NCBI GenBank assembly: GCA_041497675.1
Contig: JBGQGY010000100.1
Coordinates: forward strand, 1 to 13,836
DNA: 13,836 bases
DNA from: a bacterium
GTDB taxonomy: Bacteria; Sysuimicrobiota; Sysuimicrobiia; Sysuimicrobiales; Humicultoraceae
Direction: 5' to 3'
Position numbers and translations under genes: made by a program
Notes under the pieces: model-generated
Told to the model about the DNA's origin: nothing
The model's input: only the letters and a program-made list of their open reading frames with translations
The model's database searches: none
Shown: positions 2 through 12,323 of the stretch, piece by piece
How positions within the stretch are numbered: the first letter of the stretch is position 1
Layout: each line of letters starts with the position of its first letter

Positions 2-733
2 ACCTTCATCGAACAGGGCGGCACGGTGTTCGATACGGCACCCGGGTACGGCTCGTCCGAAGAAGTGTCCGGCCGTATCGCGGCCGAGTTGGGTCTCACG
101 GACAAGATCTTCTGGGCCACCAAACTCAACGTCGCACGCCAGGGCGGACCGGCTGATGCGGCCGCGGCGCGCGCCCAGATCGAGACCTCGTTCCGCCGGA
201 TCAGGAAGGCGAAGATCGACCTGATCCAAGTCCACAACATGGGCGACGTCGCCACGCAACTACCGATCCTTAGGGAACTGAAGCAGCAGGGGCGCATTCG
301 CTACCTCGGTGTGACCACGACCTTCGAGCAGCAGTACGCAGAGCTCATAAGCACCATGAGGAGCGAACCCCTCGACTTCATCGGCGTCGACTATGCTATC
401 GACAACCGCGAAGCCGAGACGACAATCTTGCCGCTCGCGCGAGACCGCAAGATCGGCGTGCTGGCCTACGCACCGTTCGGACGGACGCGGCTCTTTCGCC
501 GTGTCGGCGACCGCCCGTTGCCCGACTGGGCAAAGGAGTTTGACGCACAGACTTGGGCGCACTTCTTCCTCAAGTTCGTCGCCAGCCATCCGGCGGTCAC
601 CGTCGTGACGCCGGCCACCAGCCAGGCGACGAACATGCTCGACAATATCGGCGGGGCCGTCGGACGTCTCCCGGACGAAGCGACGCGAAGGCGCATGATC
701 GACTTCGTAGACAGGCTGCCATCAGCGCCATAG
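2..733 (+). CDS. Aldo/keto reductase (5'-truncated by the window edge)
   Basis: Frame is open from position 2 (TFIEQGGTVFDTAPGYG). AKR motifs: FDTAxxYG, ATK, IDLIQVHN, GRIRYLGV, AYAPFG. Stop TAG at 731-733. Confidence 0.92.
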   Translation, partial: TFIEQGGTVFDTAPGYGSSEEVSGRIAAELGLTDKIFWATKLNVARQGGPADAAAARAQIETSFRRIRKAKIDLIQVHNMGDVATQLPILRELKQQGRIRYLGVTTTFEQQYAELISTMRSEPLDFIGVDYAIDNREAETTILPLARDRKIGVLAYAPFGRTRLFRRVGDRPLPDWAKEFDAQTWAHFFLKFVASHPAVTVVTPATSQATNMLDNIGGAVGRLPDEATRRRMIDFVDRLPSAP

Positions 734-876
734 AGTCAACGCTCTCCCCAACGATACCCACCTAGTCACCTGACCAGGTCAAAGACCCGCCGCCGGGATG
801 ATGCCCGGGGCTACCCCGCAGGTGTTTACTAGTATCAGAGGACGAAACCAGAAAACCTCAACGAGGAGAGACGACG

Positions 877-1128
877 ATGAACAAGATTCTTGCAGGGCTG
901 TTGCTCGGTGGTGCACTGGTCGTGAGCGTGAACAACTGGTTCCCGACGGAAGCGCGAATGGCCGAGAACGAGCTGCTCCAGGTCGAAGCGACGAGCGCCC
1001 AGATCGAGGATGAGTTCCTGCCGGTGGATGTGCGGCAGGCGGCGATCGAGGACGAGTTCTTGCCGGTGGATGCCCGTACCGCGCAGGCCGACGATGAGGT
1101 TTTGCCCGTCGACGCGCGGTTTGCCTAA
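877..1128 (+). CDS. Small secreted protein: Sec-type signal peptide plus acidic 14-aa tandem repeats (putative multi-unit peptide precursor)
   Basis: RBS GAGGAG shortly upstream of the ATG. N-terminus is MNK + hydrophobic ILAGLLLGGALVVSV. Repeats of (E/D)DE(F/V)LPVD(A/V)R differ at synonymous codon positions. A hairpin follows the gene. Confidence 0.88.
   Translation: MNKILAGLLLGGALVVSVNNWFPTEARMAENELLQVEATSAQIEDEFLPVDVRQAAIEDEFLPVDARTAQADDEVLPVDARFA
961..1125 (+). repeat. 42-nt (14-aa) coding tandem repeat, three well-conserved units plus one degenerate unit
   Basis: Units: 961-1002 AENELLQVEATSAQ, 1003-1044 IEDEFLPVDVRQAA, 1045-1086 IEDEFLPVDARTAQ, 1087-1125 ADDEVLPVDARFA. Confidence 0.9.
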
Positions 1129-1156: not shown

Positions 1157-1187
1157 CCAGGGTGAGCCTCACGAAGGCTCACCCTGG
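1157..1187. terminator. Probable bidirectional terminator hairpin between convergent genes
   Basis: Perfect 13-bp inverted repeat CCAGGGTGAGCCT-cacga-AGGCTCACCCTGG between the stops at 1128 (+) and 1201 (-). U-tracts are weak on both sides. Confidence 0.75.
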
Positions 1188-3093: not shown

Positions 3094-4698
3094 TCATCCT
3101 GACGCCGGTCGGATGTGGGATCCGCGCGGGCGTCTCAGCAGGTTCAGTGGGAGGAGTTTTCCTCGGTCGGTCCAGATCGGTTCTGCCCGCTGCACGTGGA
3201 TGGTGCGTGCTTCGGCCAGTTGCGTGCGCACGCGGCCACTCAGCGCGCTGTTGACGGCCTCGACCAGCAGCGCGTCGTCCTGGACGTCGACCCGCGGGCT
3301 GACCAGGAGCGTCAATTGCGTGAAGCCCTGTGGGTCCTCCGTTTCGTTCAGCTGATAGTCGAGCGGCGTGCCTCCAAAGCGCGCCGGCAGCACTTCTTCG
3401 AGGAGGTGGAGCATGTCGCTGCCCATGATCGTGACACCCTCGCTCGTCAGCTTGCGAAAACTGAAGATGTTCCGGAGATGCTCGACGAATCCATGGCGCT
3501 CCAGCGGGCACCCGCACGCTCTCTGCTCGACGACGCCGTAGTCATCGCTCTCGACGTTGAGGAGAAGTTTTGGCGCCGTCGGGAGTAACGTCGTGAAGTA
3601 GAAGGCGTCGACACTGACGTCCCACTCCGGGACCTGGCGGGGGTGCTGGATGAGCGCCAGGGCGTCCTTAAAGAAATGGATGTCGTTGCCATCAGCCGGA
3701 TTTGCGCAGCCAAAACCGACCGACCCGACTTCGCTGAAGGAATACGCTGGGATCCATCGCGCCCCGGAGCGCGTGATCTCGCGCACCTTCGCCGGCGTCG
3801 GGGGCTCGCCGCCGCCCATGAACACGGCGCCGGCCAGATTCAGGTTGAGATCGCGGGCCGCGAGGGCGACCCGGACGGCCATGCTGACATGGCACCGGAG
3901 CAAGGCGGCACCGCGGGTCGCGACCGTCTCATGGACCCACCGCGCGACGGTCGCCGCGTCGTCCAACCGCACCTCCTCGGGCCAGGGGATGCGCAATCCG
4001 TGAAGCCTCCCGCTGAGGACAATGTACGCGGTGGCGAGACGATGCTTCAGGGACGGGCCCCCGCCCGGTGTAATCGCGGGAGAGAACCATTTCTCCGGCA
4101 CGTGGCCAAACCGGCACTCGCGAAGAATGTTGGAGATCCCACTGCCGTCCGGCAGGGTTCCCCGCCAGAGCGCCATCGGCGCGTCGAGTACTCCGTGAGC
4201 CGCGTACGCCAGCATTACCTGCGCGGCTCGATTCGCCGCGTGCGTGAGGTCGGGGCGCACCTCGGTCGCCGGTCCCGTGACACCCCCGCTCGAGGCCATG
4301 TAATACTGCCGCAGCAGCGGGTTGTCGAACGCGGTGCGCTCGGTGCGGATCTCGCGCCCGCTGCGGACGATCGGCGTCCGTCCCCGGAACTCCTCAAAGG
4401 TCACGTAGACGCCGGCGTCGCGCAGGGCCCGCAGCGCCGGTTCGACTCCCTTGCTGTGCACCAAATTGCGGAGGTCCGCCATCTCGCAGCCGGCGAGGGC
4501 CAGCAGTTGCCGGTAGGGACTCGCCGGGTTGGCGAAGATCGCGCGCTCGACCACCGAAAGAAAATTCACGTCGCGCGTGTCCATGCGCCGGCGCACGATC
4601 TCTTCGGCCTGTGGGAGTGTTAGACGCTCGCGGAGGAACCCGTGCAGACCCCAGGCAAAGCGAGCGGTGTCAACCGCTGTCGCGATCCTTAACGCCAT
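3094..4698 (-). CDS. Adenylate-forming enzyme, phenylacetate-CoA ligase / CapK / F390 synthetase-like (divergent)
   Basis: P-loop-like SSGGVTGP, GGEP, YSFSEVG, ESDDYG followed by CGCP, and C-terminal TDRGKL Lys motif. Confidence 0.72.
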   Translation of the reverse strand: MALRIATAVDTARFAWGLHGFLRERLTLPQAEEIVRRRMDTRDVNFLSVVERAIFANPASPYRQLLALAGCEMADLRNLVHSKGVEPALRALRDAGVYVTFEEFRGRTPIVRSGREIRTERTAFDNPLLRQYYMASSGGVTGPATEVRPDLTHAANRAAQVMLAYAAHGVLDAPMALWRGTLPDGSGISNILRECRFGHVPEKWFSPAITPGGGPSLKHRLATAYIVLSGRLHGLRIPWPEEVRLDDAATVARWVHETVATRGAALLRCHVSMAVRVALAARDLNLNLAGAVFMGGGEPPTPAKVREITRSGARWIPAYSFSEVGSVGFGCANPADGNDIHFFKDALALIQHPRQVPEWDVSVDAFYFTTLLPTAPKLLLNVESDDYGVVEQRACGCPLERHGFVEHLRNIFSFRKLTSEGVTIMGSDMLHLLEEVLPARFGGTPLDYQLNETEDPQGFTQLTLLVSPRVDVQDDALLVEAVNSALSGRVRTQLAEARTIHVQRAEPIWTDRGKLLPLNLLRRPRGSHIRPASG

Positions 4699-12050: not shown

Positions 12051-12323
12051 TCAGGCGCGCTCGAACTCTTCGACCAGACCGTCGAAGTACTGATGCCACT
12101 CGTCGCTGACCTGGTCTTCCATTTCGGCGTACCGGTGATGTTCCATGGCTTTGGTGTGGATGTTTTCGACCATGTTCGCTTCGATCTCACGGAGAAAGGC
12201 GATGATGTCGTCGCGAGAGAACTCGCCGAACTCCCCCGCCTTGAGCCGGCGGACGAACTCGTCGAGACTTCGCATCTCGACCTGACAGCACTGTTCGTAC
12301 ATTTCCCACAGCCGCTCACTCAT
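12051..12323 (-). CDS. Small acidic hypothetical protein
   Basis: Fills the gap between two + strand genes. GAGGGA RBS, GC3-rich codons, amphipathic-helix-like composition. Confidence 0.8.
   Translation of the reverse strand: MSERLWEMYEQCCQVEMRSLDEFVRRLKAGEFGEFSRDDIIAFLREIEANMVENIHTKAMEHHRYAEMEDQVSDEWHQYFDGLVEEFERA

Follow-up and report, generated by a model that had tools for sequence, protein, structure and literature searches.

The stretch of DNA analysed here (the window: 13,836 nt, contig JBGQGY010000100.1 of assembly GCA_041497675.1) belongs to a bacterium of the phylum Sysuimicrobiota and carries, close to its beginning, a small gene, P0001, on the forward strand (877..1128), which encodes a protein of 83 amino acids followed by a stop codon. 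The open reading frame (ORF) is listed and translates exactly as described in an initial annotation made from the sequence alone: an ATG start is preceded at 8 nt by the Shine-Dalgarno sequence GAGGAG (863-868, forward strand), the strong ribosome-binding site of that annotation, and the product has a hydrophobic N-terminus followed by ENELLQVEAT-SAQI-EDEFLPVDVR-QAAI-EDEFLPVDAR-TAQA-DDEVLPVDAR-FA. We find that P0001 is a selected protein gene in a single-gene cassette and that it represents an apparently new protein family. We tentatively read its product as an exported precursor of several similar peptides.

The codon-position GC content of P0001 (0.72/0.36/0.81) resembles that of the neighbouring genes. 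Against six related cassettes, compared over the first 27 codons and the last unit, the ratio of nonsynonymous to synonymous substitution rates (dN/dS) is 0.10-0.28, and a seventh cassette, for which the comparison covers the first 27 codons only, has no nonsynonymous and six synonymous differences. In this signal region of 27 codons, nonsynonymous differences number 0-2 in five relatives, 5 in L043 and 8.3 in L013, alongside 4-8 synonymous ones. The ATG, the Shine-Dalgarno site (GGAG in all aligned cassettes) and the in-register stop are kept across the 16 loci with DNA. Because dN/dS is low, and because identical residues are kept through synonymous codons across the units, 877-1128 is a real, selected protein gene. 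It is extremely unlikely that the frame arose by chance in GC-rich DNA or is incidental to a small RNA. Such DNA does yield many long frames (116 ORFs of at least 50 aa in the 13.8 kb), and an Rfam search returned a single RsmW-like match, sub-threshold and on the opposite strand (1149-1261; E 0.16, 22 bits against a gathering score of 52), but the dN/dS values, the synonymous changes that preserve identical residues in different units, and the conservation of start, ribosome-binding site and stop in a family with 36 distinct proteins all speak against it.

The tandem units with alanine-rich linkers noticed in the initial annotation are confirmed, with a period of 14 residues. When residues 27-83 are aligned with themselves without gaps, lag 14 scores best, at 119 as compared to 20.9 +/- 4.4 (maximum 48) for shuffled sequences, none of 2000 reaching it. 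In this register, a partial unit, WFPTEARMA (residues 21-29; 937..963, forward strand), abuts the hydrophobic segment. It is followed by a degenerate 12-residue unit, ENELLQVEATSA (residues 30-41; 964..999, forward strand), whose degenerate form orthologues keep, and by three full 14-residue units, QIEDEFLPVDVRQA, AIEDEFLPVDARTA and QADDEVLPVDARFA (residues 42-55, 56-69 and 70-83; 1000..1125, forward strand). NWFPTEAR is found in 11 of 13 database homologues, and the sister genus has YWLPTEARFA at the equivalent place, giving a partial-unit consensus of W(F/L)PTEAR(M/F)A directly after the hydrophobic segment. Since Tandem Repeats Finder detects no DNA array in the gene, and since 9 of the 14 residues are identical between units 3 and 4, with 7 of these 9 encoded by different codons, the repeat is old and held at the protein level, and does not reflect recent DNA slippage.

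Across 141 units from 36 distinct proteins, the consensus is (I/V)-D-D-(Q/E)-Φ-L-P-(V/T)-(E/D)-A-R-x-A, which we abbreviate to the motif DDxΦLPxEARxA, and about 11 of the 14 unit positions are constrained. The initial annotation had tied its interpretation to conservation of the core, and LPx(D/E)AR is kept in every relative, with proline in 141/141 and arginine in 128/141 units. The number of motif copies per protein ranges from 1 to 6, and P0016, with 55 aa, has a single full unit. The proteins typically end two residues after the arginine or glutamine of the last unit (...ARFA, ...ARSA, ...AQLG; 30 of 36), and the six with other ends include contig-end fragments and proteins whose C-terminal part is no longer family-like. 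Close relatives, L041 and L042, differ by whole units. In type-A proteins, the units are distinct position-specific types that occur in fixed order among orthologues.

The mature part of P0001 would comprise 57 residues, among them 15 Asp/Glu, 4 Arg and 1 Met, with no Lys, His, Cys, Trp, Tyr or Gly, for a net charge of about -11. AlphaFold2, run with a 13-row alignment, gives a mean predicted local distance difference test score (pLDDT) of 52, with residues 26-83 all below 50, a helix over residues 1-20 (pLDDT 70-73) and, at low confidence, short helices between prolines (50-60, 64-74). For the mature chain, AlphaFold2 thus predicts no stable fold. A complex prediction for four copies of residues 27-83 scored 0.02 (mark 0.42), which speaks neither for nor against self-association.

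Residues 1-26 (877..954, forward strand) resemble a signal peptide in hydropathy and charge. They contain K3 and a 15-residue hydrophobic stretch, I4-V18 (11-residue windows with a Kyte-Doolittle mean of 2.1-2.35), but neither Cys nor twin-Arg, and they end in a candidate cleavage site after T-E-A26, where T-E-A26↓R satisfies the -3/-1 rule. These features, together with their conservation, agree with the Sec-type signal peptide of the initial annotation and suggest that P0001 is exported. The host genome encodes Omp85 and LpxC, and the organism is a diderm; a Sec signal would therefore deliver P0001 to the periplasm, and not to the medium.

No Pfam, NCBIfam, PHROGs or PDB sequence-profile match was found for P0001 (Pfam E up to 0.01), and the 13 aligned members match no LTXXQ-type Pfam family at E up to 1; the match to a known structural repeat family that the initial annotation had named as a contrary outcome was thus not observed in these collections. 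A word-indexed search retrieved 13 metagenome proteins, all unnamed and 69-122 aa long. When 1.84 billion representatives of any length were searched with a profile, 30 hits were obtained, of which we read 13 as true members, all small; inspection of the other 17, large proteins included, identified them as unrelated low-complexity repeats without LPx(D/E)(A/V)R. For this reason, we conclude that the representatives searched contain no fused or larger form of the family. ESM Atlas gave a single hit to an unnamed cluster with a score of 0.80, below the useful range. Among 94 species genomes of the phylum (31 genera, a single order), the family occurs in 7, namely in 3/3 of the window's genus and in 4/8 of one sister genus, and in none of the other genera. 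As far as sequence comparison can tell, the family is new, and its narrow distribution is limited to two genera of a single uncultured diderm phylum.

A second, diverged copy is encoded on contig C18 of the same genome and has three ..TDEALPADVRSA units, so that the cores of the two paralogues differ (EDEFLPVDAR versus TDEALPADVR). The motif occurs in no other frame of the genome beyond the two family genes, which led us to reject it as a general sorting tag. A scan of genome contigs with the pattern W(L/F)PTEAR(F/M)A gave 30 loci, 3 of them already known family members and 27 chance matches, and a contig scan with the signal-peptide stretch as pattern gave 599 matching stretches with no relative among them.

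The gene is a self-contained single-gene cassette, made up of palindrome, Shine-Dalgarno sequence, ORF and terminator hairpin, that sits at differing chromosomal sites in close relatives. Its 5' edge is marked by an imperfect palindrome, CTAGTCA-cc-TGACCAG (761..778, forward strand), which is perfect in relatives (CCTGGTCA-cc-TGACCAGG). These 18 bp, with one mismatch in the window, lie at a constant distance from the ATG in 8/8 aligned type-A cassettes, whatever the upstream gene, and begin right at the junction between filled and empty site described below; other cassette subtypes have their own palindrome at the same place. The palindrome may well be an operator. It does not mark a regulon, an idea that we rejected, as the full form has no other copy in the genome and TGACCnGGTCA occurs 7 times without pattern. 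Between palindrome and Shine-Dalgarno sequence lies a conserved upstream block (779..862, forward strand) with a -10-like GTGTTTACT (822-830) and a short leader, which aligns across type-A cassettes in five contexts. Sister-genus cassettes have GTGTAATG in the columns of the -10-like GTGTTTACT, a probable promoter element that the consensus scan did not call. In total, about 125 nt of upstream sequence are conserved in all eight aligned type-A cassettes irrespective of the upstream gene.

Downstream, the hairpin that the initial annotation had assigned to the gene was recovered as a terminator-like structure with a 13-bp stem (1157..1187, forward strand; free energy -36.6 kcal/mol, z -5.5), as stable as which none of 200 shuffles folds. 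It separates the convergent peptide and peroxidase genes. The consensus scan reports no terminator at 1157-1187 because the T-run is short. A GC-rich hairpin lies 25-35 nt past the stop in 12/12 cassettes with downstream DNA; the stems differ, and several have a T-rich tail.

Cassettes were found in about ten different contexts. In the window and three metagenome contigs, an aldo/keto reductase gene with a twin-arginine translocation (Tat) signal lies upstream; in two genomes of the window's genus, a MerR-HTH/TPR gene lies upstream and a Vgb-lyase-like gene downstream. Further contexts are a small Ig-like secreted protein, two more on short contigs, a hydrolase-adenylate cyclase gene downstream of the genome's own paralogue, and a site flanked by genes for a binding protein and a LivH-type permease. 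Of the sister-genus loci, three have a receiver-domain (REC)-only gene upstream, with a NarL-type regulator and a PAS-GAF kinase encoded divergently; at a fourth, the divergent genes encode an OmpR-type regulator and a membrane HAMP kinase, and the fifth has an RpiR-type regulator. An empty site is present in the window's genome, where a MerR-TPR gene with 95 % identity is directly followed by the Vgb-like gene. Alignment of filled and empty site reveals an indel of about 495 nt that begins at the stop codon and ends immediately ahead of a shared TAAGGAATTCC.

Several other genes were noticed around P0001 in the window. The aldo/keto reductase gene upstream (2-733, forward strand) has counterparts upstream of the peptide gene in L041 (2862-3824) and L046 (1078-2028). 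The N-terminus of full-length relatives looks Tat-signal-like by eye (..TRRDWLRLTL..), which suggests a periplasmic reductase. Convergent with the peptide gene, 1201-2775 on the reverse strand encodes a protein of 524 aa that matches a twin-arginine signal and, with a Pfam E of 8e-15, an animal-haem-peroxidase domain; Tat-exported bacterial peroxidases of this family are uncommon. Farther downstream and also on the reverse strand, 3094-4698 is a 534-aa ORF whose codon-position GC is gene-like (0.69/0.49/0.82) and which neither Pfam nor NCBIfam matches at E up to 0.01, and 12051-12323, between the genes for an M29 peptidase and an Fe-alcohol dehydrogenase, is a 90-aa ORF with gene-like codon-position GC (0.64/0.29/0.79).

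Four RNA-labelled libraries have contigs on 849-1134, three of them metatranscriptomes from three studies with 88-93 % identity. As DNA carry-over is possible in such libraries, the contigs weakly support transcription of the gene. No RNA-library contig covers 704-848 or 1146-1500, and 568-703 has only unrelated partial pieces; as contigs cannot rank expression and the relatives have other flanks, we base no conclusion on this pattern. One exact-match contig, from a library whose RNA label is a guess, stops at 849, where it meets adapter sequence, and at best hints at a transcript 5' end. In a 225-nt metatranscriptome contig, 979 is joined to 1024 with 2 letters in between in place of 980-1023, so that 42 nt net are missing, the length of one 14-residue unit. 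This contig comes from a relative at below 95 % identity, and another allele or a repeat misjoin is possible; it is weakly suggestive of whole-unit turnover. At least half of the sampled words were present in 19 of the 24 runs listed, all labelled sediment metagenome; the DNA may have come from two of these.

The initial annotation had proposed to look for regulators, kinases, peptidases and modifying enzymes next to homologs, and we ran this adjacency test on the 16 loci with flanking DNA. XRE-HTH/TPR receptors (adjacent in 0/16 loci), peptidases and modifying enzymes do not appear as shared neighbours. Histidine kinases are neighbours at four of the five sister-genus loci. Pfam and NCBIfam scans of the 12 window ORFs likewise detected no receptor and no maturase-type family, in line with the earlier remark that the window contains neither.

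The MerR-HTH/TPR gene is found directly upstream of the peptide gene in two relatives. It is present in 16 of the 94 genomes, from 6 genera; 13 of these 16 lack the peptide, and it occurs in 0/8 sister-genus genomes, 4 of which carry the peptide. This lack of co-distribution, and the empty site after a 95 % identical copy in the window's genome, made us reject its product as the receptor. The start of the gene for this 277-aa protein (G000 contig C44, 14925-15755; L017 1501-2334) overlaps the end of a Ku gene by 4 nt, and a LigD-sized gene lies upstream of Ku in relative G002 (both gene names by eye), so MerR-TPR may be a regulator or partner of end-joining repair.

Two-component systems adjoin the peptide gene at the four sister-genus loci with kinases, and at no locus of the window's own genus, the window included. 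The PAS-GAF kinase is cytoplasmic and, having no membrane segment, cannot see a periplasmic ligand directly. The sister-genus systems were rejected as partners of P0001, as they have no orthologue in the window's genome (best identity 31-37 %). The stand-alone receiver-domain gene directly upstream of the peptide gene in the sister genus (L037 6386-6841, reverse; L038 14778-15230, forward; L040 293-745, reverse) encodes a C-terminal tail that extends over the conserved upstream block of the cassette.

A sortase link was considered as well. In sortase substrates, a motif of the LPXTG type precedes a hydrophobic segment and a basic tail at the C-terminus, but the P0001 motif has D/E at position 4 and no Thr, and the protein has no C-terminal hydrophobic segment or anchor. 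Sortase is found in 34/94 genomes, the window's among them, and in 0/8 of the sister genus, in which 4 of 8 carry the peptide; on this distribution the link was rejected. The sortase-family protein is encoded on a 3.2-kb contig (G000 contig C250, 71-832, reverse strand) in a genome that also has Omp85 and LpxC.

The genome further encodes four XRE-HTH proteins of 424-471 aa (G000 contigs C7 25850-27337 and 27577-28851, C28 7872-9497, and C51 1312-2894). Three of the genes, with products of 429-471 aa, have a small exported-type peptide gene (42-51 aa, ending in GG) directly upstream; the one at C7 27577-28851 (reverse strand) has no peptide gene of its own. The XRE-HTH-linked peptides (C7, C28, C51) share with P0001 the genome and an MKK-type hydrophobic N-terminus, and one has a duplicated motif, AGDGNIEVI. 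They differ from P0001 in their length of 42-51 aa, their GG end and their position directly upstream of an XRE-HTH gene; the P0001 motif is another one, and P0001 has no such neighbour.

The present evidence does not establish the function of the family, and its role is one that we infer. The reading that we prefer, with some reserve, is that P0001 is an exported multi-copy propeptide. Removal of a signal peptide of about 26 residues would leave an acidic chain of 57 residues; a protease whose gene lies elsewhere would then cut this Sec-exported chain at the unit boundaries or close to them; each unit would give rise to a peptide of about 12-14 residues with an LPxEAR core; and the unit peptides would act outside the cytoplasm on a partner encoded in trans. 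That the unit peptides serve in signalling is an idea that we regard as doubtful, though worth keeping in mind. The propeptide reading is suggested by nearly equal constraint at almost every unit position, by the member P0016, in which one full unit suffices, by the coming and going of whole units among close relatives, by the register of both protein ends with the units, and by the lack of a predicted fold. Further points in its favour are the differing cores of the two paralogues, the small exported-type peptide genes upstream of three XRE-HTH genes in the same genome, and the tandem pheromone propeptides known from Bacillota. Among the type-B paralogues, the -3/-1 rule is satisfied by A-V-A↓D or S-I-A↓N, and cleavage there would leave a whole number of units.

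Several points weigh against the propeptide reading. Of the exported protein cut into near-identical peptides of about 10 aa that the initial annotation had envisaged, the export features are there, but cleavage is a conjecture without an observed product. At the unit boundary, A-R-x-A↓, position -3 is occupied by Arg, which suits signal peptidase I poorly; the signal peptidase rule is satisfied by P-(V/T)-(D/E)-A↓R in most units, but not in type-B units (LPADVR). Nearly the whole unit is conserved, with no clear division into core and spacer, and the position-specific unit types in fixed order (type-A) also fit an uncut protein. None of the 16 loci has a protease, receptor, transporter or modifying enzyme as a conserved neighbour. 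Finally, a Sec substrate would end in the periplasm, and a 14-mer must still cross the outer membrane to act between cells.

The strongest competitor is an acidic repeat protein that stays uncut in the periplasm, which we consider possible but on the unlikely side. The 57-residue chain would remain whole and would be either free or held by an N-terminal helix that is not cleaved off. As a disordered polyanion or a multivalent ligand, it could for example buffer or bind hard cations (Ca2+, Mg2+, Fe3+), or it could modulate envelope signalling in an accessory role or be one of its outputs. In a diderm cell, the periplasm is where a Sec substrate goes by default, and the net charge of about -11 over 57 residues, the ordered, position-specific unit types among orthologues and the short helices tentatively modelled between the prolines would all suit such a protein; yet the best-conserved residues are L, P, A and R, and not only the acids, which points to specific recognition and not to generic cation binding, and P0016 shows that multivalency is not essential. 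Known small exported proteins, CpxP/Spy/ZraP and SilE/PcoE, are encoded beside, and often divergently from, a two-component system, and CpxP, ZraP and SilE are such accessory modulators or outputs of their neighbouring systems. The kinases and regulators at four of five sister-genus loci (three with REC-only gene and NarL/PAS-GAF, one with OmpR/HAMP) recall this arrangement, and with a cytoplasmic PAS-GAF kinase the peptide gene looks there more like a regulated output than an input. These neighbours are, however, confined to one genus, with no orthologue in the window's genome and no two-component system next to the window gene. CpxP/Spy/ZraP moreover carry an LTXXQ motif, but P0001 matches neither the LTXXQ family nor any other in Pfam. 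SilE/PcoE carry repeated His/Met metal-binding motifs, and SilE is disordered when unbound; mature P0001 has 0 His, 1 Met and 0 Cys, which excludes a soft-metal site of the SilE/PcoE type.

Two further alternatives were raised by the initial annotation and find less in their favour. As a special case of the propeptide reading, P0001 could be an orphan quorum-sensing propeptide of the RRNPP/Phr type, whose peptides would return to the cytoplasm, as pheromones of this kind (Phr, NprX, PapR) do through Opp, and bind an HTH-TPR receptor there, the gene of which lies elsewhere in the genome. The RRNPPA literature documents tandemly duplicated, Sec-exported pheromone propeptides that are cut by extracellular proteases in Bacillota, and it describes the Phr propeptides of the Rap-Phr systems of Bacillus and its phages as 50-120 aa long, with 1-4 or more near-identical motif copies, encoded immediately beside the TPR receptor in monoderm Bacillota hosts and releasing pheromones of 5-10 residues (PMC11343458). 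With 83 aa, Sec-type export features and a repeated short motif, P0001 matches this description as far as it goes, and the genome's XRE-HTH proteins include one without a peptide gene (C7 27577-28851). But the defining receptor adjacency is missing in 16/16 loci, the MerR-TPR neighbour is not co-distributed with the peptide, the XRE-HTH-linked peptides of the genome look different (short, with a GG end), the host is a diderm, constraint extends over about 11 residues per unit as opposed to pheromones of 5-10, and no sequence similarity to Phr was found. The Phr/RRNPP membership of the initial annotation is thus not supported, and this origin appears improbable. Its other suggestion, a multi-core precursor of ribosomally synthesised and post-translationally modified peptides whose cores are modified by an enzyme in trans, fares worse still: beyond the near-identical cores repeated in one small precursor, little speaks for it. 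A maturase-type family is lacking both in the 12 window ORFs and among the shared neighbours at the 16 loci, a Sec-type signal stands in place of a leader peptide, and the units have no Cys and variable Ser/Thr and aromatic positions. We regard such a precursor as very improbable.

In architecture, the closest known systems are the Phr propeptides and the Kex2-processed repeat proteins (KEPs) of fungi. In the published descriptions, KEPs, including the alpha-factor precursor, consist of a signal peptide and tandem near-identical units whose number varies between relatives; their genes stand alone without an adjacent receptor, and the proteins are cut in the eukaryotic secretory pathway at Kex2 sites between the units (PMC6339444, PMC7329392). 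P0001 shares with them the signal-peptide-like N-terminus, the tandem near-identical units, the stand-alone gene and the varying copy number. Kex2 cleavage sites are dibasic (KR/RR), but P0001, from a bacterial host, has a single Arg per unit within A-R-x-A, no dibasic site and no Lys in the mature part. With neither adjacent receptor nor dibasic site, P0001 is a member of neither the Phr propeptides nor the KEPs. One could nevertheless speculate, although we consider it unlikely, that the family is a bacterial counterpart of the alpha-factor/KEP principle in an uncultured phylum with an outer membrane: a stand-alone, relocating cassette for a polyprotein that would be cut into LPxEAR peptides of 12-14 residues, acting as diffusible or periplasmic signals on a receptor in trans, with the two paralogues and their EDEFLPVDAR and TDEALPADVR cores as separate channels.

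The family offers a small and clean test case, as its 12-residue motif is easily synthesised and the palindrome could serve as bait for the regulator. Should the units be released as peptides, P0001 would be a multi-copy peptide precursor in a diderm without an adjacent receptor, and it would represent a second, differently organised peptide system in a phylum that also has receptor-linked small exported peptides. If the chain stays whole, the proteins would form a new family of small disordered periplasmic polyanions.

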